Below are positions 3,001 to 21,486 of a stretch of 60,992 bases of DNA, one piece after another. The first letter of the stretch is position 1; every line of letters starts with the position of its first letter. The DNA comes from Planctomycetia bacterium (GTDB lineage: Bacteria; Planctomycetota; Planctomycetia; Pirellulales; UBA1268): assembly GCA_026401075.1 (NCBI GenBank), contig JAPLNQ010000259.1, positions 1 through 60,992 of the forward strand. Reading direction: 5' to 3'. The notes under the pieces are model-generated. The model was not told where the DNA came from, did not search any database, and was given only the letters and a program-made list of their open reading frames with translations. The translations under genes were made by a program, and so were the position numbers.

Positions 3001-4120
3001 TGCGCGGAGCTTCTTCACGGCCGACGCACCGCCGCAGGGCGAGGCGGCCGAGGCCATTCGGTGGGCATTTGACATCGGGCGAAAGTGCTGGATGAAGCTC
3101 GACGCCCGGCTCACGCAGGGACACTTGGCAATCGCACTGGCCCGGTCGGGCGACAGGCCGACGGCCCTCTCGATCATCGACAGCCTCCGGCAGCGGGCGG
3201 TCGACGCCGACGTGAAGCCCGGCGCTGAAAAAGAATCCTGGCAGGGGATGTGGTGGCGGGATCCGCATCCGGGCTGGTGGAGCTGGACGTATGCCCCGAT
3301 CGCCACGCAGACGATCATGATCGAGGCTTTTGACGAGGTGGCCGGTGACCGGGATGCCGTCGAGTCGCTCAAGGTCTGGCTCCTCTCGCAGAAGCGGACG
3401 AGCCAGTGGCCCGGCAGCCGCGCGACCGCAGATGCAGTGAGCGCACTGCTCGGCCGCGGCACCGACCTGCTCGCTTCGCAGGAGCTGGTGACCGTGACCG
3501 TGGGCGGTGAGAAGATCTCGCCGGAGCAGGTCGAGGCCGGCACCGGGTTCTTCGAAGAACGGTTCACGCGGCGCGAGATCGAGCCTGCGATGGGCCAGAT
3601 CGTCGTTGCCAAGAAGGACAAGGGCCTCGCCTTCGGCGGCGTCCACTGGCAGTACCTCGACGATATCTCGAGCGTGCCGGCGGCCGGCCGCGAGGAGCTG
3701 TCGATCGAGAAGCAGCTGTTCATCAAGAGGGTGACGAAGGCGGGGCCGGAGCTGGTGCCGGCGGCGAAGGACGGCGCCACAACAGTCGAAATGGGCGACG
3801 AACTGGTCGTGCGGCTGGTGGTGAAGAGCGACCGGGACTACGAGTTCCTCGAACTGCGCGATCATCGGCCAAGCCTCACCGAACCGGTTGACGTGCTCTC
3901 CGGCTGGCGATGGGGGGATGGCGCGGGCTGGTATATGGCCGTCCGCGACGCCTCGACGCAGCTCTTCTTCGAGCGGTTGCCGCGGGGCACGCATGTGTTT
4001 GAGTATTCGCTCCGCGCGGCCCACCGGGGCACGGCCTCGAGCGGCTTCGCGACGATCCAGAGCCGCTACGCCCCCGAGTTCTCCGCCCATTCGGCAAGCA
4101 TCCCGGTGGAGGTGAAGTAG
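2..4120 (+). CDS. alpha-2-macroglobulin family protein, 5'-truncated by window edge, thioester-less type
   Basis: The frame is open from nt 2, with no stop before the GTG at 62 used in the ORF track, so the N-terminus lies outside the window. It has repeated MG-like beta-sandwich segments. A Gly/Ala-rich bait-like stretch (RGGIGGGIGGGFGG...AAAAAPPPRK, ~nt 1450-1750) sits directly before ETAFFLPTLTSDKDGN..PDTLTTWQFKG. There is a TED-like toroid (NGDGGWPWFPGG) and a C-terminal receptor-binding-like domain. The thioester position reads LPSIMEQ rather than CxEQ. Confidence 0.85.
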   Translation, partial: QSPPLGGEVVLSGTATTYTGVSVAGAKVRWHVERAVRFPIWCRWFFPGLPFDGGGQRIARGTAVTDAAGKFTITFSARPDKSVPKESLPVFTYRVVADVTDPSGETRSDERSVNAGYTDTEASLSTEAWQATGADGKPAAVAITLATTTLDGQPRGAAGTLTVSKLVQPAEVSRSSFFGAGQGPQPIRARRGQGRGVVRPAPQPQPNPADPETWALGEALVKEQLSTDKATGKLVATATLPVGIYKAVFEIPAAGDMPAVKAQRLIEVVDADSDRYGMKRAFVMKSQKQTVEPGSEFLALIGTGYGNGRALVEISQSGKILKTFWTVAGRTQWPVTIDVGNEHRGGFTVRAWMVRDGRLHMESQTIIVPWTNKKLSIAWERFTRRLEPGAKEIWRAKIASAADPITGPAAPALAEMVATLYDQSLDALAPHQWPTDGLMGLFRRESSWMNLAFTNSGEAFNQILGGFATSYVEVPEMSYRMLRDPFGSPLRGGIGGGIGGGFGGRMMRGMALREADKMPMAAAAAPAGLAKNAMAMDGVEKRKSADANRDRAESQQDKATGGPGEPAGQTATAAAAAPPPRKNLVETAFFLPTLTSDKDGNITIEFTLPDTLTTWQFKGLAHDASLRSGTIIDSCVSAKSLMVEPVVPRFLREGDVVQIPVKVSNTSTGRLSGSVKFSLTDARTNDSRDNLVDGPRELPFDLAAGESKPVLFTVKVADGTNTLRYLATGSAGKAADGEEAMLVVLPRRVLISESVPVTLRGPGERKVSLDRLVKSAGTDIRSQSLVVQAASNPAWYAVLALPSIMEQADESTETLFTRLYANSLARHLATSDPRIGKVFEQWKGAAAAGKAGALESPLEKNTDLVKTLLAETPWVRDAVDEKEARARIALLFDTTRTDNEAQAALNRLQSLRNGDGGWPWFPGGQTCDSVTLGILSGFGRLRTAGVKAAIPGGNDLVQPALQTIPWLDGRLVEEKRRAEKFWGGKRDDIVLTPIGVYALYARSFFTADAPPQGEAAEAIRWAFDIGRKCWMKLDARLTQGHLAIALARSGDRPTALSIIDSLRQRAVDADVKPGAEKESWQGMWWRDPHPGWWSWTYAPIATQTIMIEAFDEVAGDRDAVESLKVWLLSQKRTSQWPGSRATADAVSALLGRGTDLLASQELVTVTVGGEKISPEQVEAGTGFFEERFTRREIEPAMGQIVVAKKDKGLAFGGVHWQYLDDISSVPAAGREELSIEKQLFIKRVTKAGPELVPAAKDGATTVEMGDELVVRLVVKSDRDYEFLELRDHRPSLTEPVDVLSGWRWGDGAGWYMAVRDASTQLFFERLPRGTHVFEYSLRAAHRGTASSGFATIQSRYAPEFSAHSASIPVEVK

Positions 4121-8309: not shown

Positions 8310-9275
8310 CTACGGCTGCTCGCCGGTCGATTCCGAACCGGCACGGGTGTGCAGGTTCCGCATCAGCGTGCCGTCGATTTCAGGCGTCACCTGACCGACG
8401 TGGCCGTCGGCGTAGCCGAACAGCGTGATGCCAGCCTGATGGTTACTCGACTCGGCATAGTCAGTCGAACCATTATAGATCGCAGCAGAGCCAACCGTGG
8501 CCTGATTATCGAGGACACCAAGCGTGCCGCCCGTGCAGCCCGCAGCGGCATAGGTCATCCCCGGTGCAGCGGCATTAACCGCCGTCACCCACGCAGTAGC
8601 ACCGTCGATCCAGCCTGACTTCGTCGCTTCACGACTTTCGCCGACCATGAACGTCTTCGACGTTCCGTCGGTGATCTGAGCCAGCGTGATGCCCGTGTAG
8701 GGGGCACTCGTCTCTGAGCCATACTTCTCAAGCGTGATCACACCACCGCCGGTGCCCAAAATCTGCGGGACGTTGGCAGCGGTCGTCGCGACAGCAGCAA
8801 TGCCCTTGTAGTTCGTCACGCCGCAAGTCGCGACGGTGTTCGCCGTGGCATTCTTCTTGTCACCGGCGAACGACGGGCAGACCAGCTGCGGCAGCGATGT
8901 CTGCGCCTGGGCGGTATTCACAGTCCCGCTAAACGCAGTGGCTAAACGGCTCGAGTTGCTCGAGATCTGCGTGTAGAGGTTCGTCTCCTCCAGGAACGGC
9001 AGGATCGTAGTGATCCAGCTGTAGCCGCCAGCGACGAGGTAGCCGGTGCTCGAGTTGACATTACAGTTTGCCTGCGGCAGACGCCTACGAGCACTTTCAA
9101 AGTTCAGCACGCCCAGGCCGAGCTGCTTGATGTTGTTGGTGCAGGCGCTGCGACGAGCAGCTTCACGAGCCGACTGGACAGCCGGCAGGAGCAGACCAAC
9201 CAGCGTGCCGATGATCGCAATGACCACCAGCAGTTCGACGAGGGTGAAACCCCCGCGATTCTTGGAAATTGTCAT
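8310..9275 (-). CDS. DUF1559 protein with prepilin-type N-terminal methylation motif and H-X9-DG-like C-terminus
   Basis: From ATG 9275 the N-terminus reads [54 protein letters not shown], a type IV pilin-like leader plus the DUF1559 N-terminus. The C-terminal [20 protein letters not shown] resembles the H-X9-DG motif with one extra residue. A GGAGGA sits 5 nt upstream of the ATG. Confidence 0.9.
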
Positions 9276-9280
9276 GAGAA

Positions 9281-9286
9281 TCCTCC
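9281..9286 (-). promoter_or_regulatory. Shine-Dalgarno-like GGAGGA for the DUF1559 gene
   Basis: The minus strand reads GGAGGA-TTCTC-ATG. Confidence 0.6.
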
Positions 9287-9700
9287 ACCCATTTGGGCAT
9301 GAAAAGAAAAGAAACAATAAAAACCCAACCGACAGAAACGAACCGACATAGAAGAGCAGAACGCGTGGAAGAAACCACCCCGCAAACCCAGCCTGACACC
9401 TGTCAACCGTTGGCCATCCCTCTCCGCATGACACACGGCGCCGAAGAAGGCCCTGACTTCTTCACCGGCTACTGAATTGAGGGGTTTTGGAACCCTCCCC
9501 GCGTACTCCTTAATTATTGATGATTTAGTACGTCGCCGTCAATGGGCTAGTTCATCGCGATGCAGAAAAATTTCTGGATTGCAAGGAAAGTCGCCGCCTG
9601 ATCTCCGCAGGAGCCGCGCAAACGCCGTATTTTATCGGTTTTTAGTTGTTTCGTGGCTTCCGCGTCGGGCAGAGGCGGGCGGCGCGGTAGAACGAGTCAC
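9287..9700. promoter_or_regulatory. divergent intergenic/promoter region (DUF1559 gene and lactate permease)
   Basis: About 410 bp without a credible ORF and visibly more AT-rich than the flanks (e.g. ccttaattattgatgatttagtac, gcagaaaaatttctgg). I cannot define -35/-10 elements. Confidence 0.35.
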
Positions 9701-11476
9701 ATGGTCTGGTCGCACGTCTACGATCCGTTGGCCTCGCCGCTGCTCTCCACGCTGGTGGCGACGCTCCCGCTGGTTGCCCTGCTGGGTCTTTTGGCCGGAG
9801 CCGGCTGGTCGGCCCACGCCGCGGCAGGGGCGGGCCTGGCCACCGCCCTGGCGATCGCCGTGGGGATCGTGGGGATGCCAGCCGATGCGGCTCTGGCAGC
9901 CGCCCTCCACGGCGCCGCCTTCGGCCTCTTTCCCATTGGCTGGATCATCGTGACGGCCATGTTTCTCTACCAGCTCACGCTCGAGGCCGGTGCCCTCGAG
10001 ATCATGAAGCGGTCGGTCACCAGGCTCTCCGCCGATCATCGCATGCAGGCCCTCCTGATCGCCTTTTCCTTCGGGGCATTCCTGGAAGGGGCTGCGGGTT
10101 TCGGGGCACCGGTCGCAATCTCCGCAGCACTCCTCACCGGCGCCGGGTTTCCCGCCCTCGAAGCGGCCTGCCTCGCCCTCATTGCCAACACGGCACCAGT
10201 CGCCTTTGGCGCCCTCGGCACGCCGATCATCACGCTGGCGAAGGTGACCGGCCTCGACGAGTTCGCCATTTCCCAGATGGCCGGCCGTCAACTCCCCTTC
10301 TTTTCGCTCATCGTGCCGGCCTGGATGGTGGCCACGATGGCGGGCTGGCGGGGGCTCCTGGCGGTCTGGCCGGCGGTCCTCGTCTGTGGCGGATCCTTCG
10401 CCGTGCTGCAGTTTGCCATGGCCAACTATGTGGGGGCGGCGCTCGTCGATGTGGTGGCGGGAATCGTCAGCCTCGTGACGCTCGCCGTGTTTCTCCGCTG
10501 GTGGCAGCCACGGGAATGCTGGCAGCATGGAACCGGGCGGGCAAAACCGGCACCGGCACTACGGGCGGCACACACCGAGCGAGCCCCTGATCCACAAGAC
10601 TCGCTCCGCGCGATCGCCTGGGCCTGGGCACCATGGGCGTTTCTCTCGGTGGCCGTGTTCTGCTGGGGCCTGCCCACAGTGAAGGCCACGCTCGAAGGCC
10701 GACCCCAGCGCGCGGATACAAGCCCCCGGCGTGAGCCGGGGGATGCGTTGCCCGTGATCGCTGCAGCAACCACACCGCCCGTGGCCGGCATGCCTCTGCT
10801 GCCGAAGAGCATCGTGGCCCCTGAACTCCCCGTGCCCAGGCTCGATGGCCGCATCGCAAAAGTCCCGCCGGCTACCCGTAAGCCGCTCGAAATCGAACGG
10901 GCCATCTACCGGCTCAACTGGCTCTCGGCGGCGGGCACCGGCATCCTCGTGGCGGCTCTGGCCGCGGTGCCGTGGCTCGGTATTCCCTGGCGGCGGGCGG
11001 CCGCGATCTGGTGGGAAAACCTGCAGCGTCTCTCGCTGTCGCTCCTGACAATCGCGGGGATGCTGGCGCTGGCGTTCGTGACCCGGTATTCGGGGACCGA
11101 CGTCACGCTCGGCCTGGCCCTCACCCGGTCAGGCTGGCTCTATCCTGTCTTCTCGGCCCTGCTGGGCTGGCTGGGCGTTGCGCTCACCGGATCCGACACC
11201 GCGAGCAATGCGATGTTCGGCAGTCTGCAACGCGTGACCGCCGAACAGTTGGGCTTGAACCCGCTGCTCATCTGCACGGCCAACAGCACCGGCGGCGTGA
11301 TGGGGAAAATGATCGACGCGCAGAGCATCGTCGTATCGGCGACCGCGACGGGCGTGCACCGCCAGGAAGGTGCGATCTTGCGACGGGTCTTTCCGCACAG
11401 CCTGGCGCTGGCGATCCTCATGGGACTGCTCGTCTGGCTGCAGTCGGGCCCGCTGGCGTGGATGGTGCCACAGTAA
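9701..11476 (+). CDS. lctP: L-lactate/glycolate permease (LctP family)
   Basis: MVWSHVYDPLASPLLSTLVATLPLVALLGLL...FPIGWIIVTAMFLYQLT...LIAFSFGAFLEGAAGFGAPVAISAALL...IANTAPVAFGALGTPI are typical LctP-family blocks. I chose ATG 9701. Confidence 0.88.
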   Translation: MVWSHVYDPLASPLLSTLVATLPLVALLGLLAGAGWSAHAAAGAGLATALAIAVGIVGMPADAALAAALHGAAFGLFPIGWIIVTAMFLYQLTLEAGALEIMKRSVTRLSADHRMQALLIAFSFGAFLEGAAGFGAPVAISAALLTGAGFPALEAACLALIANTAPVAFGALGTPIITLAKVTGLDEFAISQMAGRQLPFFSLIVPAWMVATMAGWRGLLAVWPAVLVCGGSFAVLQFAMANYVGAALVDVVAGIVSLVTLAVFLRWWQPRECWQHGTGRAKPAPALRAAHTERAPDPQDSLRAIAWAWAPWAFLSVAVFCWGLPTVKATLEGRPQRADTSPRREPGDALPVIAAATTPPVAGMPLLPKSIVAPELPVPRLDGRIAKVPPATRKPLEIERAIYRLNWLSAAGTGILVAALAAVPWLGIPWRRAAAIWWENLQRLSLSLLTIAGMLALAFVTRYSGTDVTLGLALTRSGWLYPVFSALLGWLGVALTGSDTASNAMFGSLQRVTAEQLGLNPLLICTANSTGGVMGKMIDAQSIVVSATATGVHRQEGAILRRVFPHSLALAILMGLLVWLQSGPLAWMVPQ

Positions 11477-12404
11477 TCGTCCCATCGGCATCCGCCTGGA
11501 GGCCGAGCACGACCGCGGCCACTGCCCAAGCGTCGGCCTCGGCACAGGTTGCGGACCGTACGGTCGCCGCGCGGTCGGAACTGTCGGAACTGGATGACGC
11601 CACCGGCCGGCCCGTCCGCGGATCGATCGGCGAACGGCCGGGGCGGCAGGTCGATGTGGCGACCGCCATGCCATCGGCAAGAAAAATCTCTTGCGGCTGC
11701 CCGTGCCCGGCATCGGCGGCTCGCAGCCGCACCCGCCACGGTCGGCCTTCGGAGGGCTGCCCCCATGCCCGCACCTCGCCGCCGAGCTCGACGAGATGGG
11801 CCGCCGAGCCGAGTTCCAGAAGCCGCTCGCCGATGCGGTCTACGGCATACCCGGGGGCGATCCCGCTCAGGTCGATCTCGACGCCAGCTTGGGATTTCCG
11901 CAGGGCTGCGCCGGCCTCCGTCGTGGCGGGCCGCGATTCGACCAATCGCATGCCCACACAGCCACGGGCTTCCGCAATTGCGATAGCGGATGGCTCGAGG
12001 GCACGTCCGCTCCAGAGCCGCACGAGGGGGCCGACGGTGATGTCGAAGGCTCCTTCCGACTGCTCGTGGATCTCGCGAGCGGTGTCCACGAGCGTCACGA
12101 GATCCGCCGACACCATCACCCATTCGCCGGCGGCCGCCCCATTGAACCGGCTGGCGTCGGAATCATTTCGCCACGTGCTCGCCGCCCGGTCGATCCGCGC
12201 GAGTACCGCCTCCACCTCACGATGCACCTCGCCGCGGGTCATGCCGGATATGTCGGCGGCCAGCGTCACCCGGTAGGTCGTCCCCATCGCCGGCCCCGCG
12301 AGCGTGGGCATCTCCTCTGCCGCCACCCAAAATGGTGCCAGGCACCAAATTTGGGCAATCTGGCAAATTACCCAGATTTGGTGCCAGGCACCGTTTCCTT
12401 TCAT
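11418..12404 (-). CDS. apbE: FAD:protein FMN transferase (ApbE family)
   Basis: ApbE motif blocks: GAFDITVGPLVRLW, IDLSGIAPGYAVDRI, MAVATST..SPIDPRTGRP and AEADAWAVAAVVLG. ATG 12404 overlaps the upstream stop as ATGA and adds a signal-peptide-like N-terminus (MKGNGAWHQIWVICQIAQIWCLAPFWVAA/EE). The alternative start ATG 12311 gives no signal peptide. The 3' end overlaps convergent lctP by 59 nt. Confidence 0.85.
   Translation of the reverse strand: MKGNGAWHQIWVICQIAQIWCLAPFWVAAEEMPTLAGPAMGTTYRVTLAADISGMTRGEVHREVEAVLARIDRAASTWRNDSDASRFNGAAAGEWVMVSADLVTLVDTAREIHEQSEGAFDITVGPLVRLWSGRALEPSAIAIAEARGCVGMRLVESRPATTEAGAALRKSQAGVEIDLSGIAPGYAVDRIGERLLELGSAAHLVELGGEVRAWGQPSEGRPWRVRLRAADAGHGQPQEIFLADGMAVATSTCRPGRSPIDPRTGRPVASSSSDSSDRAATVRSATCAEADAWAVAAVVLGLQADADGTITVAPSTPAGPTAARRAVP
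12334..12392. repeat. family E palindromic repeat, inverted pair
   Basis: ggtgccaggcaccaaatttgggcaat (12334-12359) and aaattacccagatttggtgccaggcacc (12365-12392) are near-perfect inverted copies. Each contains the 13-bp palindrome GGTGCCWGGCACC. A third copy lies at 24291-24318. Confidence 0.85.
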
Positions 12405-14134
12405 GCTGGCCACCAGTGCACGGCCGCTGCGATGGCGAGGCAACTGAGCAGCAGGCCATCCCGCCACGAAAACCGGTCGGCCCGCCGGTGCAGTCGTAGA
12501 TGGTCGAGCAGCGCACCGGTTGGGCAGCCGTGCCGGCAGTAGGCCATCGGATAGACGCTGCTCGCGACGAGGCTCACGGCGAAGATGACGAGTGCCGCGA
12601 CTCCAGACACCGCCGGGAGATAGGCATCGAACGGCTCCAGATCGACGAGATTCAGCGGGAGGTGGAGCACGGCCGCCAAGATCGCCACCGTAAGCAACAC
12701 CCACGGCAGCGCGACGAGCACTCGCTTCAGCCACTCTGGCACGCTCCGCTTCGGCTTCACGAACCGCACGAGTAGCTGCTGCGCTGCACCGTGCGCACAC
12801 AGATGCGAACAGTAGACGTTCCGCCGCGTCGTGATCGGCAGCACGAGGGCGGCCAGTGTGAGTGCCATGAGCACGACCGCCCCGCGGGCCACGCCCGCCT
12901 GCGCCCAGCCCCACAGTTGCGCCTGCGACAGCAGGGCCCCGGCGCCGAAGCCGAGGTATGCAAGCACGGCGATCGGGAGGGCGAGCCGGCCAAACCACGT
13001 GCCGCGAAGCCGCGTGAATGCGGTAACGATGCCGGCCACGATCACGCCGATGGCGCCCCACTGGGGGCCATCGATGCTCGCGATGGCAGAGGCCAGGAAT
13101 GTCGCCCACGAGGCTCGACGCTGCGTGGCCCGCTGCTCGGCCTGCTGCCGCGCGGCACGAACGATCCCTTCGGCCACGGCCTGACTCGTCATCGTGGCGC
13201 CGCTGACTCCCTCGACACCGGTGTTTCGCGGATCGATGCCCACGATCGCCTCGAGCGACATGCCTCGGTAGACACCCCGAAAGGCCGCGTCGTCGCGGAC
13301 ATAGCCGACGTAGGGCTCGTTGTCGTAGCTGGTGAGCACCGCCACGCCACAGACTTTTCCCGTGGCATCGAAGCCGACCAACGCATCGGTCGGGCCCTGA
13401 TAGCCGATCACGCGGTCGGCCGCCGGGCTCGTCCGCAGCGCCCAGCCCAGCGGGATCGCGTCGGCCGCCAGCACGCGGATCACCGCCGGATCGCCAGGAT
13501 CGGGCTCGATCCGCACGGCATCAGGATAGATCAGCTTCAGGTCGGCGAGCGTGGGCGGTTGCTCGAACCGGCTCGCCGACGCCGTGCCCCCCAGCCGTCG
13601 CACGAGGGCCTCGGCGATCGCCAGGCTCGTGAGCGTGGCCCCCGCCACCGCATGGGCCTTCTCCGGCTTCATCCCGGCCAGCTCTTCAAGCGATTTTCCA
13701 CGGAACGATTGCCAGAAGGCGGCGTCGCGTTCCACCGCACGCACATGGTCTCGCGTGTCGCGGCTAGAGAGCACCTCGATGCCGGCCACACGGAGGTCGC
13801 GATCGCAGACGACGAGCAGATCGGTCGGCCCCGAGAAGCCGATCGCGGCATCGCCCGCGGGCGACGTGCGGAGCATCGTGCCCACGCGTTCCCCTGCCGC
13901 ATCGAGGAGGTCGCGGCCCCCCGCCACGGCATCCGCCGGGCCGCCGATCGCTGCCGCCTCGGGCAGATACTTCTGCACCTGTGCGATCGGCAGGCTGGCC
14001 AGATCGGCGGCCGAGTGCCGACCGACATATCGGACATGCTCCGCATGCACGAGCCACGCGATCGCCGCCACGACCGCCACGCGGGCCGCGTGCGCGACGA
14101 TCGGCACGAGACTCCGCGCACCACGATGCAGCAC
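12401..14134 (-). CDS. membrane protein with two FMN_bind domains and a NosR/NapH-like polytopic C-terminal half
   Basis: One N-terminal TM helix, then two FMN_bind-like domains ending in the flavinylation motifs HAVAGATLTSLAIAEAL and VEGVSGATMTSQAVAEGI. After these come ~6 TM helices with Cx3C motifs (VYCSHLCAHGAAQ, AYCRHGCPTGALLD). GTG start at 14134, 6 nt after the upstream stop. Confidence 0.8.
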   Translation of the reverse strand: MLHRGARSLVPIVAHAARVAVVAAIAWLVHAEHVRYVGRHSAADLASLPIAQVQKYLPEAAAIGGPADAVAGGRDLLDAAGERVGTMLRTSPAGDAAIGFSGPTDLLVVCDRDLRVAGIEVLSSRDTRDHVRAVERDAAFWQSFRGKSLEELAGMKPEKAHAVAGATLTSLAIAEALVRRLGGTASASRFEQPPTLADLKLIYPDAVRIEPDPGDPAVIRVLAADAIPLGWALRTSPAADRVIGYQGPTDALVGFDATGKVCGVAVLTSYDNEPYVGYVRDDAAFRGVYRGMSLEAIVGIDPRNTGVEGVSGATMTSQAVAEGIVRAARQQAEQRATQRRASWATFLASAIASIDGPQWGAIGVIVAGIVTAFTRLRGTWFGRLALPIAVLAYLGFGAGALLSQAQLWGWAQAGVARGAVVLMALTLAALVLPITTRRNVYCSHLCAHGAAQQLLVRFVKPKRSVPEWLKRVLVALPWVLLTVAILAAVLHLPLNLVDLEPFDAYLPAVSGVAALVIFAVSLVASSVYPMAYCRHGCPTGALLDHLRLHRRADRFSWRDGLLLSCLAIAAAVHWWPA

Positions 14135-14143
14135 AGCGGTCTC

Positions 14144-16459
14144 CTACTTGACGGTCGGCGTGACAGTTGGCACGAGCATCACGGCGTCGGCGTGGGCATT
14201 CCCTTTGGCACCGTCGGTGCCGATCACCACGACGCAGGCATCTCCCTTGCCGAGGTTCACGCGGCTCGCGGATCCAAAGCCACCGTCAAGGGGCGCCGGC
14301 TGCCGCATGTCGAGCCGGACGCTTGTGCGGCCCGCAGGGGTCTCCACGAGCACTGGTACCGCGGCGCCGCGATTCTCGTGGGGCAGCCAGCTGACGAGCA
14401 CGTCGTAGCTGCCAGGAACCGGCGCCGTGAGTTCATATCGGATCGTGGCTCCGCTGTCGGCTGCCGCATAGAGATAGCCCCGGCCCACGAAGCCCTTGAG
14501 TCCGGTGCCCTCGGTCCAACTGCCTTCACGAACCGCCCGCAAGTCGTCCTCAACGACGGCCCCGCGATCCTTGGCGAGCTTCCGCGGATCGATCCCCATG
14601 GGGGGCCCATGCGGGCCGGCCAGCGGCAGGGCGTCGGCCGGGATCTCGATCGGCGACGAGAGGCTCATGCGGCGGGCCTTGCCCGGCAGCTTCAGGAGTT
14701 CGTCCACGTCGCCCCAGTGCTTCTCATACACGCCACGCGGATTCGTGCCGTGCTTGATCGCCACGCTCGCCGCCTTGCCCACCACCTCCCCCATCATCCC
14801 GCAGGTCTTCATCACGCGAACGGTGCCGAGCGCCTCGTGCGTGACGGAGATACAACGCCCGGCCATGAAGAGGTTGTCAACGTTCTTGGAGTAGAAGCAG
14901 CGGTACGGAACGGGATAGCCGTAGGCCCGGTCGATGCGGTCGTCAAACTTCGCGATCGAGATGAACGGGTTGTCGGGAAACTTCTTCGCGTATTCCTGCT
15001 TGGGATAGTGCAGGTCGATCGACCAGGTGGAGGGCACACACCCGTCGGGGAACTCCCGCTTGCCCACGACGTCTTCGTGCGTGAGCACGACGTCGCCGAG
15101 GATCCGGCGGCTCTCCCGCGGCCCCCCGATGGCGGCCACCCAGGTGAGGACGGCGTTCGCGTGCTTGTCGGCCCCGTCGCCGTTCTTCATCGCGTTGAAA
15201 GCGCCGTAGACCGCGCGAAGGTTCCAGTCACGGATCCCCTCTGCGTCGGCCAGCGGATCCTTGTCGAAGCCGCTCTCCCAGAACCACTCGCCGTGATGGC
15301 TGCGCGGATAAGGAAAGTCCGCCATCGTGAGCGGCAGCGCCCACGGCGTCTCGGGAAACGTCTGCGGGCCGTCGGCCTCGTCCCAGGACCACATGTTGCT
15401 CATCCCCATCCGACCCTTCTCCTCCATCACGGTCTCGGCGTCGGCCAGGTTGCCGATCGTGGCATGGCCGGTGGCGTCGCAGAAGAATCGGCCGGTGAAC
15501 CGCAGCTCGCGGCTCGTTCGAGTATCGAGACCGGTGATGCTCTTGATCCGCGTGCCGTCCCGCTCAGCGGCGAAGGCATGCGTGTTGAGAAAGAGATCGA
15601 TGTTCGGCTCCGCGCGAACGATCCGCTCCTTCTTGGCATCCTCAAACTCCTCATAGGTGCCGGGGCTCTTCTTCGCGTGGTCGCAGAACTCCTCGATGAT
15701 TTCACCGACCCGCGGATACTTACCGCGACGGATCAGCCCCTGCGCCCAGACACGGATCTCACTCGACCCATTGCCACCAAGCACCGGCCGATCCTGCACG
15801 AGCGCAACCTTCAGTCCCATGCGTGCTGAAGAAAGCGCGGCTCCCATGCCTGAGTAGCCGCCGCCGATCACGACCAGATCGTAGGGCCCCTTGGTCTCCG
15901 GCTCCGCTGGCAGACCGAGCGACGTCCGCCGCCAACTGGCCAGGACGGCCGAATCGTTCGGGGGTGGCGTGGCGTCGGTAGTGAAGACGATGCAGTCGCA
16001 GCGGCCGTCGAAGCCGGTGAGATCGCGCAGACCGATGGTTGCCTCGCCGGCCGGCAGCGACACCGTGCCGCCATCCTGCCAGCCCCACGCGGCGCCGTTG
16101 GTGCCGCATGGCTCTGCCAGCGGCGTGCCGTTGACGACCACTTGAAATCGACCCGGCGATCCCGCGGCGTTCCACCGCGCCACCCAGTCCTTCGTGCGGA
16201 CAAACACGCGATACTCACCGGCAGTGGGAATGGCGACCTTCGTCGTGGCATCGGCCACCGGCTTGCCCAGGCCGTGCGCGAGCAGGTAGGGCGATCCCAT
16301 CTGTTCGATGAACTGCGTGTCGAGCGTCCAGCCGCCGTGGTCGGCGAAGCTCTCGGCCTCCACGAGCACCGTGGCCGCGTCGGCGTGCCCACCACAAAGG
16401 GCACTGGAAAGACCGGCCAAGAGGAGGAACGCTGGGGCAAGGCTGGTGATCACGCGCAT
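14144..16459 (-). CDS. secreted FAD-dependent oxidoreductase flanked by CBM-like beta-sandwich domains
   Basis: From ATG 16459 there is a Sec-type signal (MRVITSLAPAFLLLAGLSSALCGGHADAA). The N-terminal domain VLVEAESFADHGGWTLDTQF...GEYRVFVRTKDW is CBM-like. The dinucleotide fold reads YDLVVIGGGYSGMGAALSSARMGLKVALVQDRPVLGGNGSSE. The C-terminal domain GSWTEGTG..GYLYAAADSGATIRYEL..PGSYDVLVSW is also CBM-like. Confidence 0.8.
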   Translation of the reverse strand: MRVITSLAPAFLLLAGLSSALCGGHADAATVLVEAESFADHGGWTLDTQFIEQMGSPYLLAHGLGKPVADATTKVAIPTAGEYRVFVRTKDWVARWNAAGSPGRFQVVVNGTPLAEPCGTNGAAWGWQDGGTVSLPAGEATIGLRDLTGFDGRCDCIVFTTDATPPPNDSAVLASWRRTSLGLPAEPETKGPYDLVVIGGGYSGMGAALSSARMGLKVALVQDRPVLGGNGSSEIRVWAQGLIRRGKYPRVGEIIEEFCDHAKKSPGTYEEFEDAKKERIVRAEPNIDLFLNTHAFAAERDGTRIKSITGLDTRTSRELRFTGRFFCDATGHATIGNLADAETVMEEKGRMGMSNMWSWDEADGPQTFPETPWALPLTMADFPYPRSHHGEWFWESGFDKDPLADAEGIRDWNLRAVYGAFNAMKNGDGADKHANAVLTWVAAIGGPRESRRILGDVVLTHEDVVGKREFPDGCVPSTWSIDLHYPKQEYAKKFPDNPFISIAKFDDRIDRAYGYPVPYRCFYSKNVDNLFMAGRCISVTHEALGTVRVMKTCGMMGEVVGKAASVAIKHGTNPRGVYEKHWGDVDELLKLPGKARRMSLSSPIEIPADALPLAGPHGPPMGIDPRKLAKDRGAVVEDDLRAVREGSWTEGTGLKGFVGRGYLYAAADSGATIRYELTAPVPGSYDVLVSWLPHENRGAAVPVLVETPAGRTSVRLDMRQPAPLDGGFGSASRVNLGKGDACVVVIGTDGAKGNAHADAVMLVPTVTPTVK

Positions 16460-16697
16460 GGTCGTATCTCTCCGGCAATTCTGGCGATGAAGCATGACGC
16501 CTGCATCATGCCTGAAGACTTCACATCGTTTCAAGCTTCAACCAACCACGAATCCCAGTATTCTGGCCGCCGCGACGAGATCCAAGCAAACGCGTCAAAA
16601 ACCTGCATTTCCGCGGCAGTCTGCAGCCAATTGCGTCGACACCCATCGACCAAGCAACTACGCTTGACGCGTCCTTGAACGCCCTGCCCACCAGAGG

Positions 16698-19600
16698 ATG
16701 ACGCAGACCATGCTCGCCCGTCCTGCTTCCGCGCCTCTGATGCCGGCCCTGCTCACGGTCGTTCTGCTGTCCGGTGCCTCGGCACTGGCCGCCGACCTCG
16801 CGGGCCAAGACGCCACGGCCGACACGGCCAGCAATGCCTTCTCCCACTTCGGGATCTTCGCCAAGACGTCCCCGCGGCCAGACGCCTGCCCGCCCGGCAC
16901 GACGTCGCTGCCGCTCGAACTCCACCGCGGCGACCACATCTGCCTGATCGGCAACACACTCTTCGAACGTACCCAACTCTTCGGGCATCTGCCCGCCCTG
17001 CTGCACGCCGGCTTCCCTGACCACGAACTCGTCATCCGCAACCTCGCCTGGTCGGCCGACGAAATCGATCTGGCCCCCCGACCGGAAAACTTCGCCGACG
17101 TCGACCAACATCTGGCGTATTTCAAGGCTGACGTGATCCTCGCCGCCTACGGGTTCAACGAGTCATTCGCGGGCGAGGATGGACTGCCGGCGTTCCGGCG
17201 AAAACTCGCGGCGTTTCTCGGAGGGCTCAAGACGAAGGCGTTCAACGGCCGGACTGCCGCCCGCATCGTGCTGGTCTCGCCGATCGCCAACGAGAATCTG
17301 CCAGGCGTGGCGGCAGCCGACAACAACAATCCGCGGATCTGTCTCTACGTCGAGGCGATGCGGGAGGTGGCCCGTGACGCGGAGGTCGGCTTCGCCGATG
17401 TCTTCACGCCGACGCTGGCCGCGATCTCGAATCCGACCACGACGCTCACGATCAACGGCTGCCACCTTACTTCCCGCGGTGACGAACTCTTCGCGCGATC
17501 GCTGTTTCAACAGTGCTTCGGCCGCGAGCCGCCGGCCATCGACGAGAAGCTCCGTCTGGCCGCCGTCGATCTCGACCGGCAGTTCTTCCGTCGCTACCGG
17601 CCGCTGAACACATTCTATTACACCGGCGGACGCAACAAGGATTACGGCTATCTCGACTTCCTGCCGGCGCTTCGCAACTTCGACATCATGTGCGCCAACC
17701 GCGACCGGTGGATCTGGGACATCGCCCATGGCCGCCCGGTGGCGGACAAGGCGGACGATACCAACCTCCCCGCGATGCCGCCGGTCAACGAGAGCCGCGG
17801 GGCCAACGAGTGGCTGTCCGCGGCGGAGGAATTGAAGGCCTTCAAGATCGACCCGCGGTTCACGGTGAACCTCTTCGCCGGCGAGGAGCAGTTTCCCGAG
17901 ATCGCCAATCCGATCCAGGCCCGCTTCGATGCCCGCGGCCGGCTCTGGGTGAGCACGTCGCAGGCCTATCCGCATATCTATCCTGGCATGGAGGCCTGCG
18001 ACCGCCTCGTGATTCTCGAAGACACCGATGGCGACGGTCGGGCCGATACGTCGAAGATTTTCGCCGACGACCTGCATCTTCCACTGTCGTTCGAGTTTGG
18101 CGACGGCGGCGTCTACGTGTCGGAGCAGCCGCACCTGACGTTCCTTCGGGATACCGACGGTGACGACCGGGCGGATGTCCACGACGTCGTGCTTTCGGGA
18201 TTCGGCACCGAAGACTCCCACCACTCGCTCCACGACTTCATCTGGTCGCCCGACGGCGGCCTCATCTTCCGCGAAAGCGTCTTCCACCATTCGCAGGTCG
18301 AGACACCCTACGGCCCGGTACGGCAGCACAACAGCGGCTGGTTCAGGTACGAACCCCGCACGCACCGGCTCACGAGTTTCGGCAGTTATCCCAGCACGAA
18401 TCCCTGGGGCGTGGCCTACGACCCGTGGGGCAATCACGTCGCGAGCCACCCGATCTTCGCCGAAGCGTTTCATGCACTCGACCCGCCGTATCCGCGACAG
18501 CATGCGGCGCCTCAGGGTCTGCAGGCCTATTCAGGCACCTGCGGCCAGGCCTTCGTCGATGCGCCGGGATTTCCACGGGATATGCACGGCGGCTTCATCA
18601 AGGTCCGCTACAAGCCCACCAATCGCATCGAGATCCACAGCTGGGTCGAGGGCGGCTATGGCTACGATGAACAGTACGCGGGGGATCTGCTCTTTTCGAC
18701 CAATCTGAGCTTCATCCCGGTCGACCTCCACTTCGGACCGCGCGGCGACCTCTTCGCGATCGACTGGTACAACCCGGTCAAGGGTCACGCGCAGTATTCG
18801 CTGCGGGACAGCCGCCGCAACCGCGAGTCAGGCCGCATCTGGCGGATCACCGCCACAGACGGCCGACTCGGCGACATGCCCCGCATCAACGGCGCTGGTG
18901 AAGCCGACCTGGCACGACTGCTCGGACACCCGGAATTTCGCATCCGCTATCTAGCCACCCGGGAACTCGCGTCCCGCGACCGTGCCGCGGCCGCGGCGGC
19001 TGTCGATGCCTGGGCGGCGGGACTCAATCCCAACGATCCGTCGTTTCTCCGCCACACGACCGAGGCGATGTGGGCGCTCAGCACGATCGGCGCGGTGCGG
19101 CCCGAGTTGCTGCGCACACTCGCATCCGCGACCGACCACCACGCTCGGGCCGCGGCGGCACGGCAGCTGAGGTTCTGGCACGACGTGCTTTCCGATCGGC
19201 ACGAACTCCTGTCTGCGGCCGCCGGCGACAGGTCCGGCCTCGTGCGGATGGAGGCGGCGATCACCGCCAGTTGGATCGGCACTCGGGAATCCCTCGATGC
19301 CGTCCTCGCCATCTGCCGACAGCCGCTCGGTGGCCACCTGGCCTACGCTGCCACCTGCGCGCTCGAGTCGCACGCGCTCCGCCGGCATTGGGAATCCGAT
19401 GCCTCCTCGCCGGTGCCCAGCCTCCTGAAGCGGGCCAGCCGGAGCCTGCGGATCGCGGAGCCGAAACCGACGACCGAGGAGCGGAAGTTCGACCAGCAAC
19501 CCGGCCTGACCGAGGTCCGGATTGGGTGCGAGCCGGAACGGATGCTCTTCACCAATCGGCAGTTCGTCGTCCGGCCGGGGCAGCCTGTGAAGCTCGTCTT

Positions 19601-20453
19601 CACCAACCCCGACGCGACCGACCACAACCTCGTGATCGTCCGACCGGGCACGCTCGCGGAGGTGGGCATGGCCGCCAACGACATGGCCAAGGATCCGAGC
19701 AACGCCACGGGCGACTTCGTGCCCGATTCGAAGCGGGATCTCATCGTCGCCGCCACGCCGATGATCGGGCCCACGCGAAAATCCACCGCGCATGTGCTTC
19801 GCTTCGAGGCTCCGACCGAACCGGGTCTCTATCCCTACGTGTGCACGTTCCCCGGTCACTGGATCGTGATGAATGGACAGATGGTCGTGGCCAGGGATGC
19901 GGCGCAGGCGGAAGAGCTGCTGGCGACCTGCCGGCCGAAGATCGTGAAGGCCTGGACGCTCGATGATTTTCCGGTGATCAAGACGGCAACCGACGAGGCG
20001 ACGCTGACCCGTGGCATGCATGCCTTCGCAAAGGCGCAGTGCACGCAGTGCCACGTGGCGGCCGGGCATGGCGTGAATCTTGGACCGAATCTGGTCGAGA
20101 GCACGAAGAAGTATCGGGGCCGGGAACTCCTCGAACAAGTGCTCGAGCCGTCGAAGGTGATTCACGACCTCTACCGGACGATGCAGTTCGTGCTGGACAG
20201 CGGCCGGGTCGTCTCGGGCGTGGTGCTCGAGGAATCGGCAGACTCCTACCGGGTTGCAACGAACCTGCTCACGCCCCAACAGACGCTCACCATCCGGAAG
20301 GCTGATGTGGAGGAGCGGATCGGGTCGCAGGTCTCGGCGATGCCCTCGGGACTGCTGAACGTGTTGTCGCCGGAGGAAGTGCTGGCGCTCGTGTCATTTC
20401 TGGAGGCCGGGGAAAACCTGCCGGCAGCCTTGCGGCATACCCCGCATCCGTAG
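16698..20453 (+). CDS. multidomain periplasmic protein: SGNH hydrolase-like + beta-propeller dehydrogenase-like + HEAT repeats + cupredoxin + c-type cytochrome
   Basis: Signal peptide, then an SGNH-like block (HICLIGNTLFERTQ..DVILAAYGFNESFAG). Next a propeller-like region (GRLWVSTSQAYPH..DTDGDGRAD), HEAT-like helical repeats and a cupredoxin copper site (NPDATDHNLVIV...YPYVCTFPGHWIVMNG). The heme motif AQCTQCH comes near the end. This is typical planctomycete/verrucomicrobial 'membrane-bound dehydrogenase / heme-binding' architecture. Confidence 0.8.
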   Translation: MTQTMLARPASAPLMPALLTVVLLSGASALAADLAGQDATADTASNAFSHFGIFAKTSPRPDACPPGTTSLPLELHRGDHICLIGNTLFERTQLFGHLPALLHAGFPDHELVIRNLAWSADEIDLAPRPENFADVDQHLAYFKADVILAAYGFNESFAGEDGLPAFRRKLAAFLGGLKTKAFNGRTAARIVLVSPIANENLPGVAAADNNNPRICLYVEAMREVARDAEVGFADVFTPTLAAISNPTTTLTINGCHLTSRGDELFARSLFQQCFGREPPAIDEKLRLAAVDLDRQFFRRYRPLNTFYYTGGRNKDYGYLDFLPALRNFDIMCANRDRWIWDIAHGRPVADKADDTNLPAMPPVNESRGANEWLSAAEELKAFKIDPRFTVNLFAGEEQFPEIANPIQARFDARGRLWVSTSQAYPHIYPGMEACDRLVILEDTDGDGRADTSKIFADDLHLPLSFEFGDGGVYVSEQPHLTFLRDTDGDDRADVHDVVLSGFGTEDSHHSLHDFIWSPDGGLIFRESVFHHSQVETPYGPVRQHNSGWFRYEPRTHRLTSFGSYPSTNPWGVAYDPWGNHVASHPIFAEAFHALDPPYPRQHAAPQGLQAYSGTCGQAFVDAPGFPRDMHGGFIKVRYKPTNRIEIHSWVEGGYGYDEQYAGDLLFSTNLSFIPVDLHFGPRGDLFAIDWYNPVKGHAQYSLRDSRRNRESGRIWRITATDGRLGDMPRINGAGEADLARLLGHPEFRIRYLATRELASRDRAAAAAAVDAWAAGLNPNDPSFLRHTTEAMWALSTIGAVRPELLRTLASATDHHARAAAARQLRFWHDVLSDRHELLSAAAGDRSGLVRMEAAITASWIGTRESLDAVLAICRQPLGGHLAYAATCALESHALRRHWESDASSPVPSLLKRASRSLRIAEPKPTTEERKFDQQPGLTEVRIGCEPERMLFTNRQFVVRPGQPVKLVFTNPDATDHNLVIVRPGTLAEVGMAANDMAKDPSNATGDFVPDSKRDLIVAATPMIGPTRKSTAHVLRFEAPTEPGLYPYVCTFPGHWIVMNGQMVVARDAAQAEELLATCRPKIVKAWTLDDFPVIKTATDEATLTRGMHAFAKAQCTQCHVAAGHGVNLGPNLVESTKKYRGRELLEQVLEPSKVIHDLYRTMQFVLDSGRVVSGVVLEESADSYRVATNLLTPQQTLTIRKADVEERIGSQVSAMPSGLLNVLSPEEVLALVSFLEAGENLPAALRHTPHP

Positions 20454-20475: not shown

Positions 20476-21348
20476 CTACCGACGACGGCTTGCCACGGCC
20501 ATGGCGATCGAGACCATCGGCAGGATGAGACAGATCACGCCGGCGGCAAGCAGGGTTCCCGTGACCGGCGTCACGTCGAACCGCGACCGGCCCGCGAGCG
20601 TCTGCACGAGGGCGAAGCAGCCGATGAGCGTCGTGCCGACGGTGGCCGCCGCCACCAGCCAGAAGCGACTTGGTTCCGTGACGCCGGCCCGCCGCGCCGC
20701 CCAGGCGAGCAGCGGCAGCCACTGCAGCGCATGGATGACCGCGCCATGGGGAAACTTCGGCACGCCGGCGACGCCGTAGTGTTCAGGGGGGAGCCCCGCC
20801 GCCATCCGCATGTCGCCATGCACGCTCACCCAGATGCCGAGCCCACACGAGATCACGAGCAACACGAGCCCTGCCCGGGCAGCCAGCAGCATGTCCGGAG
20901 CGAGGCCCGTGGGCTGCCGGAGGAATCGAATCGTGAGGTCGACAGCGATGAGCGTGACCCAGAGGATGAGCAGGCCCATCGCGTCGTAGAGCACCGAGTC
21001 GAATGGCGTCGAGCGGTTGAAATGGCTGGCCACGCCACGCCAGGTCTGCAGATTGATCAGGCCCACTTCCACCAGGAGCGCCCAGGCAACGGTCGCCGCC
21101 AGCCAGGCATCGCCGCGACGCCACGGCAGTTGGGCCCACGCCCAACCGAGCGACAGGCACGTCAGGCCGCCCGAGATGCCGAAGAGGATCGGCTTCCGCC
21201 AGGTGACCGGCCCCTCCCACGGACCTCCAAGCACGGCCCAGACGACGAGGTGGGCCAGTCCGCTGACGACGAGCAGGAGGCCGATCACGGCCAGTAGTTG
21301 CGCGCGTCGGTCACGAAACCAGTCTCGAGAAGGCGATTGAAGGTCCAT
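20476..21348 (-). CDS. hypothetical polytopic membrane protein
   Basis: From ATG 21348 (MDLQSPSRDWFRDRRAQLLAVIGLLLVVSGLAHLVVW...) there are about 8 hydrophobic helices. I recognise no family. The upstream part of the listed ORF runs through a family B repeat. Confidence 0.6.
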   Translation of the reverse strand: MDLQSPSRDWFRDRRAQLLAVIGLLLVVSGLAHLVVWAVLGGPWEGPVTWRKPILFGISGGLTCLSLGWAWAQLPWRRGDAWLAATVAWALLVEVGLINLQTWRGVASHFNRSTPFDSVLYDAMGLLILWVTLIAVDLTIRFLRQPTGLAPDMLLAARAGLVLLVISCGLGIWVSVHGDMRMAAGLPPEHYGVAGVPKFPHGAVIHALQWLPLLAWAARRAGVTEPSRFWLVAAATVGTTLIGCFALVQTLAGRSRFDVTPVTGTLLAAGVICLILPMVSIAMAVASRRR

Positions 21349-21396
21349 GCTCGATGAGTCTACGTCGAAACGCTCCGGCGAGCCGGGGGTCGTCTT

Positions 21397-21486
21397 CCGT
21401 GGGGACACGATTTCATCTTGTTCGCATCGTGGGGACAAGATTTTATCTTGTCCAAAAATCACAAGTTGAAAACTTGTGGCCACGGG
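21397..21486. repeat. family B composite hairpin repeat, copy 2 (reverse orientation, plus a degenerate partial copy)
   Basis: cgtggggacaagattttatcttgtcc...cacaagttgaaaacttgtggccacggg, preceded by the degenerate ccgtggggacacgatttcatcttgttc. It lies in the divergent intergenic region 21349-21568. Confidence 0.8.

Follow-up and report, generated by a model that had tools for sequence, protein, structure and literature searches.

NapH-like systems are flavinylation gene clusters defined by a protein of the family PF12801 (or K19339) that is encoded in a cluster with an FMN_bind- or ApbE-encoding gene; Meheust et al. (2021) catalogued 2465 of them, with modular partners and with most reactions unknown (PMC8238504). 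Here we describe three genes that fall within this class, on the minus strand of a contig from a Planctomycetia bacterium (Pirellulales, UBA1268; assembly GCA_026401075.1, contig JAPLNQ010000259.1), the whole of which, 60,992 nucleotides (nt), is called the window below. They encode an exported flavin adenine dinucleotide (FAD)-dependent oxidoreductase of the family PF12831 (the FAD enzyme), a membrane protein with two predicted flavin mononucleotide (FMN)-binding domains (the conduit) and a predicted flavin transferase, ApbE. As in the catalogued systems, a PF12801 protein with multiple transmembrane (TM) helices and an N-terminal extracytosolic FMN_bind region is encoded next to ApbE and a periplasmic oxidoreductase; PF12801, FMN_bind and the adjacent ApbE all score above their cut-offs, and both the candidate flavinylated domains and ApbE are predicted to lie outside the cytosol, from the positive-inside rule and the ApbE signal peptides. 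The partners named for NapH-like systems are NosZ, PceA, NirS and ExaA (PMC8238504), whereas here the partner is a carbohydrate-associated PF12831 enzyme, and one FMN_bind domain there compares with two in the conduit. Neither PF12831 nor planctomycetes are mentioned in the text of that survey or in the portion of its supplements covered here (PMC8238504). The wiring principle is already catalogued; its PF12831 enzyme partner is not. An earlier reading of the window from its sequence (the original prediction) had called the trio orphan and uncharacterized: we likewise found no characterization of this trio in the literature, but its class is the catalogued one of NapH-like systems (PMC8238504).

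In its predicted architecture, the conduit is closest to PceC/RdhC. Those proteins join an exocytoplasmic covalent-FMN domain to six TM helices with two cytoplasmic-side Cys motifs and no C-terminal 4Fe–4S domain, and a quinol link to a periplasmic enzyme has been proposed for them (PMC5928378); the conduit shares the six TM helices, a peripheral FMN domain with its Thr and the lack of a C-terminal 4Fe–4S domain. It differs in having two FMN domains instead of one and an extra N-terminal TM anchor, and in its first Cys motif, which is mostly CX3CA where both motifs of PceC/RdhC are CX3CP. PceC/RdhC are encoded with rdhA/rdhB, whereas no reductive dehalogenase was found among the neighbours scanned here (15 larger open reading frames (ORFs), window 1–34 kb), in which the conduit is accompanied by the FAD_oxidored gene, apbE, an LctP permease gene and a PVC-type heme protein gene. 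Nor do these ORFs include any nos, nap, nqr or rnf gene, in agreement with the original prediction. The NosR–ApbE–NosZ system resembles the trio in its ApbE-flavinylated periplasmic FMN_bind domain and its NapH-type TM module, which are needed for the activity of a periplasmic enzyme, but NosR has a C-terminal cytoplasmic 2×[4Fe–4S] domain and a nos cluster, and the conduit has neither; we found no paper on a NosR-type structure in the literature. NapH has four TM helices, two CX3CP motifs, two 4Fe–4S motifs and the partners NapG/NapAB.

Other described systems share parts of this design. In the Listeria PplA/FmnB pair, too, a dedicated ApbE-type enzyme flavinylates two FMN_bind domains in tandem, which act as an extracytosolic relay of the kind predicted here, but PplA is a soluble lipoprotein fed by Ndh2, demethylmenaquinone (DMK) and EetAB, whereas the FMN domains described here are fused to a membrane module; domains of Ndh2, EetA/EetB and DmkA/B were not found in the neighbours scanned, the rest of the window not having been searched for them. 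The conduit also resembles the paired ‘FMN-bind2’ units of Huang et al. (2024), its two domains being spaced 147 residues apart. In UrdA (Shewanella), FrdA (Listeria) and flavocytochrome c3, an exported FAD enzyme is likewise fed via a covalent FMN domain, with FAD supplied outside the cytoplasm; those enzymes, however, belong to FAD_binding_2 and carry the FMN domain themselves, whereas here the enzyme belongs to PF12831 and it is the membrane partner that bears the FMN domains. Periplasmic FAD-dependent glucoside 3-dehydrogenase and gluconate 2-dehydrogenase oxidize sugars and pass the electrons to the respiratory chain via a dedicated cytochrome c carrier. The analogy to these enzymes is functional only, as they are GMC-family proteins that use the twin-arginine (Tat) route and cytochrome c, in contrast to the PF12831 family, Sec route and flavin carrier of the trio.

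Gene organization

The FAD gene occupies positions 14144–16459 (minus strand; 771 amino acids (aa)) and encodes a PF12831 FAD_oxidored core between two beta-sandwich domains. It is followed by the conduit gene at 12401–14134 (minus strand; 577 aa), which encodes a TM anchor, two FMN_bind domains and a six-TM NapH/PceC-type module, and by apbE at 11418–12404 (minus strand; 328 aa), an FAD:protein FMN transferase by profile match. The three co-directional ORFs lie where the original prediction had placed them, and the ATGA overlap that it described is present at the junction between the conduit gene and apbE, GCATGAAA, in which the apbE ATG overlaps the conduit stop codon. Its 6-nt gap between the FAD and conduit genes has to be corrected: the junction reads TAG-GAGACCGCT-GTG, with 9 nt between the FAD stop codon and a GTG start, and the spacer GAGACCGCT contains GGAG. 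On balance we think that the three genes probably form one operon for an extracytoplasmic redox module, a judgement that takes in the whole explanation developed below, wiring included.

A sigma-70-like promoter match lies at 16505–16534 (minus strand), 46 nt upstream of the FAD start codon. It is weak evidence: the site, the sole one in the region, matches 9 of 12 consensus positions, with shuffled sequences averaging 0.4 sites, and the consensus may not be the host's, as planctomycete promoters may differ. A plus-strand ORF at 12791–15829 (1012 aa), antisense to the FAD and conduit genes, was rejected as a high-GC artefact because gene selection weighted by GC content at third codon positions (GC3) preferred the minus-strand genes (GC3 about 0.82).

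Conservation of the trio

The conduit has 1528 homologues, and every one that carries an organism name comes from a planctomycete. Its relatives occupy 218 places in species-representative genomes, 80 of which were kept for locus counts; all 80 are from metagenome-assembled genomes (MAGs), nearly all labelled Planctomycetota and mostly Pirellulales, and the few bins labelled Kuenenia or Chitinophagaceae are probably mislabelled. Comparison of the window proteins by tblastn with these 80 loci and three metagenome contigs placed the FAD gene upstream of the conduit gene, on the same strand, in 61 of the 68 loci with at least 2.5 kb of room (43 adjacent and 18 within 5 kb); it was absent from the other 7. 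In 76 of the 80 loci with room, apbE lies directly downstream of the conduit gene. Conservation in related genomes was one of the checks that the original prediction had set for itself, and these counts bear it out. Identity to the window proteins ranges from 65 to 93% for the FAD enzyme, the most conserved of the three, from 48 to 89% for the conduit and from 39 to 82% for ApbE.

The association extends to more distant representatives of the FAD family. Two of these, P0241 (53% identity to the FAD enzyme) and P0246 (51%), are each followed by an FMN_bind+Fer4_5 gene whose product is 39% and 31% identical, respectively, to the window conduit and keeps both flavinylation motifs and both Cys motifs. 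Five other representatives, at 44–53% identity, stand alone. As far as sequence comparison can tell, the conduit-coupled enzymes are one clade of a larger FAD family, and the pairing of FAD enzyme and conduit has outlived extensive divergence and a complete turnover of flanking genes.

The membrane conduit

Pfam profiles find two FMN_bind stretches in the conduit (E 1.8e-18, 67.4 bits) and two Fer4_5/PF12801 stretches (E 2.8e-12, 46.9 bits, cut-off 22). The FMN_bind domains derive from an internal duplication, aa 84–179 aligning with aa 229–326 at 48% identity (E 2e-26). ApbE attaches FMN to the last Thr/Ser of the motif D-x-x-[S/T]-G-A-[S/T] (PMC12052999), and each conduit domain holds such a motif ending in a candidate acceptor. 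In domain 1 (aa 84–179; 13598–13885, minus strand) this is Thr167 of AGAT (codon 13634–13636); G165, T167, L168 and T169 are invariant, and 73 homologues keep the motif, which the window spells HAVAGAT and the homologues DAV[AG]G[AS]T, with A/G in place of S/T at position −3. In domain 2 (aa 229–327; 13154–13450, minus strand; best Pfam FMN_bind stretch aa 244–327) it is Thr314 of EGVSGAT (codon 13193–13195), where E replaces the D of the consensus; the core SGAT is kept in nearly all of the 73 homologues, reads SGAS in the most distant, and falls within an alignment of domain 2 to RnfG of solved Rnf complexes. Profile search and motif conservation together confirm the two ApbE-type motifs, AGATLTS and SGATMTS, that had been read from the window.

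The six-TM module (aa 356–577; 12404–13069, minus strand) carries two Cys motifs, C442-x3-C446 (CSHLCA; 12797–12811, minus strand) and C533-x3-C537-P (CRHGCP; 12521–12538, minus strand). All four Cys are retained in the 73 homologues, and with H444, H448 and H545 they are invariant; the first motif is CX3CA in the window and most homologues and CP in 5 homologues plus loci L084 and L086. The conduit has no C-terminal ferredoxin domain, the chain ending 39 aa past the second Cys motif. With the N-terminal helix, the protein has seven TM segments. The loops that hold the Cys motifs are strongly K/R-rich and the loop between them is acidic, so that, by the positive-inside rule, the Cys motifs are predicted to face the cytoplasm and the 330-residue double FMN_bind region the periplasm, a topology that has been shown experimentally for PceC and NosR (PMC5928378). 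A cytoplasmic placement of the FMN domains would have contradicted the original prediction; the analysis instead puts both outside, with the exported FAD enzyme and ApbE.

The Cx3C motifs described in the original prediction are present, but the likeness that it drew to NosR and NapH gives way to the closer one to PceC/RdhC. NCBIfam matches of the conduit to NosR, RnfG and NapH are all weak and far below threshold: NF046105, the NosR model, has a cut-off of 1000 but gives 61 bits, over aa 196–336 only, and the NapH models score 17 bits against cut-offs of 213–234, with no nap genes among the ORFs scanned.

The N-terminal TM anchor (aa 8–30; 14045–14113, minus strand) lies in a region with invariant R18, W27, H30, E32 and H33, unusual for a simple anchor. 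These polar and charged residues suggest that the anchor is functional, for instance in binding a ligand or in packing against other helices.

ApbE

The product of 11418–12404 matches PF02424 at E 4.2e-57 (194.1 bits) over aa 40–304 of 328, that is, across the catalytic domain, in line with its earlier identification as an ApbE flavin transferase, and it is predicted to be exported. Its signal sequence of about 30 aa (aa 1–31, MKGNGAWHQIWVICQIAQIWCLAPFWVAAEE; 12312–12404, minus strand) has a hydrophobic segment at aa 10–28. A hydrophobic, signal-like N-terminal segment occurs in nearly all of 78 ApbE homologues, just before the conserved ELPTLAGPAMGTTYRV ([EDG]LPTxAGPAMGTTYRV). A cytoplasmic ApbE was rejected on the junction sequence and these signal segments. 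Trp, Gln and His are unusually frequent in the signal of the window and its nearest relatives (MKGNGAWHQIWVICQIAQIWCLAPFWVAA); in more distant homologues, a signal peptide of the ordinary kind, rich in Ala, Leu and Val, takes this position.

The FAD enzyme

The FAD enzyme matches PF12831 FAD_oxidored at E 5.8e-69, its 233.8 bits lying far above the gathering cut-off of 27 across the FAD and cap domains. Its Sec-type signal peptide (aa 1–28, ending GGHADA before ATVLVEAE; 16376–16459, minus strand) has a hydrophobic segment at aa 3–21. In 42 of 42 orthologues examined, a signal peptide stands directly before the mature LVEAE start, in most with a small-x-A end followed by Thr, and none of the 42 has a consensus Tat motif. 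The profile match and these signal peptides support the original prediction of a Sec-exported FAD oxidoreductase.

Its second element, a pair of beta-sandwich domains resembling carbohydrate-binding modules (CBMs) on either side of the FAD core, was confirmed by an AlphaFold2 (AF2) model and Foldseek. The model was built from an alignment of 66 diverse sequences and has a pLDDT of 93.5 and a pTM of 0.87; it replaced one built from 40 close orthologues in which pLDDT fell below 50 at aa 345–552. The N-terminal domain (aa ~30–165; 15965–16372, minus strand) gives only a weak Pfam match to CBM_35 (aa 71–147, E 0.0044, below cut-off), but in the model it matches CBM6/CBM35 structures in the PDB with a TMt of 0.70–0.75. 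Its residues W44, W92, W125, W127, D146 and R153 are invariant in the 66 relatives and, on this pattern of conservation, the domain is an integral part of the enzyme subfamily and not an appended module. The C-terminal domain (aa 642–763; 14171–14536, minus strand) is a Golvesin_C beta-sandwich (E 7.5e-17, 62.1 bits) and putatively binds carbohydrate. It matches the C-terminal domain of Paenibacillus xanthan lyase 6F2P by profile (E 2.9e-11) and by structure, where 6F2P ranks first in Foldseek (root-mean-square deviation (rmsd) 2.3), and it is missing from many conduit-coupled homologues.

Between the sandwiches lie the FAD-binding and catalytic domains (aa ~188–600; 14660–15898, minus strand), with the Rossmann motif GGGYSGMGAA. 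Residues G199, G201, G204, D328, E407, R410, D411, R448, D456, D472, D482, H484 and R520 are invariant in the 66 relatives. Against the PDB, Foldseek matched the catalytic part to nothing closer than generic two-domain flavoproteins (TMt ≤0.42, rmsd >10 Å), namely fumarate reductase/succinate dehydrogenase flavoprotein, flavocytochrome c3, APS reductase, geranylgeranyl reductase and GidA. PDB sequence and profile searches matched only the Rossmann motif and the xanthan lyase domain, so that sequence, profile and fold searches together did not yield a reaction, and no characterized PF12831 enzyme or reaction was found in the literature. The enzyme does not group with the fumarate and urocanate reductases: FAD_binding_2 covers only aa 194–243, and the Foldseek matches to those enzymes have a TMt of about 0.3 and an rmsd above 12.

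A surface loop of the Golvesin_C domain holds DSGAT (aa 668–672; 14444–14458, minus strand), which matches the core ApbE target motif. The core [ST]GA[ST] is kept in 56 of 72 orthologues and reads SAAT, SNAT, SDAT or SGSK in the other 16, and a site of this type is absent from the Golvesin_C domain of more distant relatives, including the conduit-coupled P0241. A third flavinylation site here is possible but probably not essential, because the motif is degraded in those 16 orthologues and the whole domain is missing from many conduit-coupled homologues.

The FAD family and its link to carbohydrates

The FAD enzyme has about 8000 close homologues; in an exhaustive search, 9723 representative clusters passed E ≤1e-3 and 959, formed at 50% identity, passed E ≤1e-30. 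Matches typically cover aa ~28–590, that is, the N-terminal beta-sandwich and the FAD core, and the extensions vary. Long relatives are fused to glycoside hydrolase (GH) domains (GH97, melibiase (GH27/36), GH16, alpha-L-fucosidase (GH29), GH20, GH129 and apiosidase-like) and to GDSL esterase, F5/8 type C, Laminin_G_3 and FGE-sulfatase domains, and one stand-alone relative sits between a LacI gene, two GH30 genes and GH43.

Lower-GC Pirellulales/Planctomycetaceae MAGs hold the most distant of the conduit-coupled loci, and there a sulfatase gene with a CSPTR formylglycine motif lies between the FAD and conduit genes on the opposite strand (L077, 8347–9954, minus strand; likewise L079, L082, L083 and L070). 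Downstream in the same loci are an esterase–sulfatase fusion, a Tat-exported Gfo/Idh/MocA oxidoreductase and a protein with a weak match, below the Pfam cut-off, to 3-keto-disaccharide hydrolase. A second Gfo/Idh/MocA family, with an RR-containing Tat-like N terminus, neighbours the cluster in five more loci. The glycosidase fusions, these neighbourhoods and the CBM-like N- and C-terminal domains make a sugar, glycoside or glycan fragment the likely substrate, and the range of glycosidases found in such fusions points to a reaction on some feature that sugars have in common. The glycan-derived substrate supposed in the original prediction from the CBM-like domains so gains independent support from domain fusions and gene neighbourhoods.

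The inserted sulfatase splits the operon in the most distant loci, yet the genes remain together; a different sulfatase occurs in L030 and L067. In L087, a MatE (MATE efflux) gene (2490–3833, plus strand) lies directly upstream of a stand-alone relative of the FAD enzyme. The MATE-family protein Bfe exports FAD to the periplasm in Shewanella, and by analogy the L087 gene could encode a flavin exporter; it has no match within the window.

Neighbouring genes

Divergent from the FAD gene lies the gene for a PVC-type heme-binding protein (16698–20453, plus strand; 1251 aa), which combines GDSL esterase, DUF7133 dehydrogenase-like, HEAT, azurin-like and cytochrome c domains, the last two being the cupredoxin and cytochrome c that the original prediction had read there. 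Only L011 and L028 have a close orthologue (78% identity) in this place, and in those two loci its gene separates the FAD gene from that of a 6-TM protein. In the window, this 6-TM protein is encoded at 20476–21348 (minus strand; ORF 20476–21483, likely true start 21348). It has three invariant His, is left unassigned by Pfam, with no match, and carries the invariant motifs WRKPILFG, QxWRGVxSHFNR, AGVPKFPHGxxIHAxQWLP and TLxGRxRFD. In 14 loci the FAD gene has an orthologue of this gene upstream on its own strand, directly adjoining it in L002, L004, L006, L009 and L029 and still near in the most distant group. The 6-TM protein has 749 homologues, with a Pfam annotation on 0 of the 120 matches listed, and the few with an organism name come from planctomycetes. 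This protein could be a fourth component, embedded in the membrane.

On the other side, an L-lactate/glycolate permease family gene (LctP; 9653–11476, plus strand) converges on apbE with a 59-nt overlap of their 3′ ends; this neighbour is present in 29 related loci, and a functional link is not evident. Beyond it lies a DUF1559 pseudopilin-like gene (8310–9434). In other loci, a DUF1559 pseudopilin-like gene and a gene for a lipoprotein-like product of about 152 aa directly precede the FAD gene on the same strand (L003, 6181–7634; L022, L032, L036 and L069). The scanned neighbours further include an alpha-2-macroglobulin-like protein, TPR proteins, an aldo/keto reductase, DUF1501 and PSCyt/PSD1.

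A proposed electron route and its alternatives

We are moderately confident that the trio represents a periplasmic, carbohydrate-associated FAD enzyme wired to the respiratory membrane by a double-FMN conduit. FAD would have to be supplied to the periplasm, because the FAD enzyme would be exported unfolded and because ApbE also takes FAD as its FMN donor (PMC12052999). ApbE would attach FMN covalently to T167 and T314, and the two FMN domains would form a short flavin relay between the enzyme FAD and the six-TM PceC/NapH-type module. On the cytoplasmic side, the four invariant Cys and the conserved His of the module would link to a membrane electron pool, most plausibly menaquinone/menaquinol; on the inner face, these Cys with H444, H448 and H545 are the sole candidates for a redox or ligand role. 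The NapH/PceC six-TM module has been proposed to exchange electrons with the quinone pool (PMC5928378), and a cytoplasmic ferredoxin-type partner is less likely because the conduit lacks the cytoplasmic 4Fe–4S domain of NosR/NapH.

As to direction, we slightly favour oxidation, with electrons passing from substrate to FAD, through both FMNs and the membrane module to quinone, and with the enzyme as a periplasmic dehydrogenase, because the many paralogues without a conduit, often fused to glycosidases, can rely outside the cell only on O2 as an acceptor. The conduit-coupled clade would hand those electrons to the respiratory chain instead. More tentatively, and with the balance of our judgement against it, the PF12831 subfamily with the N-terminal sandwich may be a large class of extracytoplasmic carbohydrate oxidizers, one Pirellulales clade of which runs on a covalent di-flavin respiratory wire; the 6-TM, His-rich protein at 20476–21348 might then be a further membrane component.

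Several points weigh against the proposed wiring and its direction. We found no biochemically characterized member of the FAD subfamily in the literature, and no close solved relative of its catalytic domain in the PDB. Glycan-related neighbours are very common in planctomycetes, so the association with them could be partly background. Synteny was measured within one phylum, where shared ancestry inflates counts, and the conduit may serve other clients, as 7 loci have the conduit and apbE with no FAD gene nearby. The interaction of NapH-type modules with quinone is only proposed, and their CX3C(P) motifs may either bind Fe–S or form disulfides (PMC5928378). The studied modules of the NapH family (NapH, NosR and probably PceC) also send electrons outward, to a reductase (PMC5928378).

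Read in that outward direction, the trio would be a quinol-dependent periplasmic reductase, with electrons running from menaquinol through the PceC-like module, two FMNs and the FAD enzyme to an acceptor outside the cytoplasm. This acceptor could be an alpha,beta-unsaturated carboxylate, for instance the 4,5-unsaturated uronate ends left by polysaccharide lyases, and the trio would then have its parallel in the flavinylated fumarate and urocanate reductases. Each characterized NapH-family conduit (NapH, NosR and, as proposed, PceC) does feed a periplasmic reductase, and among flavoenzymes the fold comes closest, though weakly, to fumarate reductase/flavocytochrome c3 and APS reductase. The CBM35 structure 2W47, which the N-terminal domain matches, binds 4,5-anhydrogalacturonic acid, and the C-terminal domain resembles one of xanthan lyase. 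Those fold matches, however, are generic (TMt ≤0.32 for fumarate reductases, 10–15% identity), with FAD_binding_2 matching the Rossmann motif only, and for the stand-alone and GH-fused paralogues a reductant outside the cell is not evident. Most source genomes are MAGs of Pirellulales from lake water, presumably aerobic heterotrophs, and no polysaccharide lyase was seen in the neighbourhoods examined; we regard a reductase as unlikely. Alternatively, the enzyme might be a redox-neutral, glycan-active flavoenzyme whose reaction needs reduced flavin or a transient oxidation–elimination cycle in a compartment without NAD(P)H, the conduit and ApbE serving only to keep it in its active redox state, as NosR does for NosZ. 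NosR is indeed required to sustain NosZ activity (PMC5928378), the many unrelated glycosidase families to which the FAD module is fused suggest that it assists glycoside cleavage rather than energy metabolism, and many paralogues manage without a conduit. But stand-alone paralogues in the same compartment would need activation too, occasional repair would hardly call for a two-FMN relay and its own transferase, conserved in about 90% of loci, and a precedent within PF12831 was not found, which makes such a role improbable in our view.

A further reading dissolves the partnership itself: the conduit and ApbE would be a general periplasmic electron hub, with PSCyt/PSD cytochromes, the PVC-type heme protein or Gfo/Idh/MocA enzymes as clients, and the adjacent FAD gene would reflect inherited gene order. 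The seven loci that have the pair and no FAD gene, several of them flanked by PSCyt/PSD and DUF1501 genes, fit a hub, as does L040, in which a gene for a Tat-exported Gfo/Idh/MocA protein stands directly upstream in place of the FAD gene; the window, L011 and L028 have the PVC-type heme protein as divergent neighbour. Yet those are the only 3 loci with that neighbour, and PSCyt/DUF1501 pairs are ubiquitous in planctomycete genomes. The FAD gene stands on the same strand in 61 of the 68 loci, tens of bases away, and remains linked where the flanking genes are entirely different and the conduit is only 31–48% identical; this speaks against inherited order, and we give a hub very little credence.

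Significance

PF12831 ‘FAD-dependent oxidoreductases’ are abundant in glycan-degrading Planctomycetota and related bacteria, where they are fused to many glycosidase families. The operon is genetic evidence that at least one PF12831 clade transfers electrons outside the cytoplasm, and it names the likely redox partner; the family is thereby open to experiment, with the FMN domains as physiological partner. The modular NapH-like systems, in turn, gain a carbohydrate-linked enzyme class and a fused di-FMN architecture. If the subfamily does include a clade on a di-flavin wire, periplasmic oxidation of glycans or glycosides would directly energize the membrane, as a flavin counterpart of the cytochrome c-linked sugar dehydrogenases. 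If electrons flow in the oxidative direction, the trio would provide a route that couples polysaccharide turnover to respiration in freshwater and marine planctomycetes.

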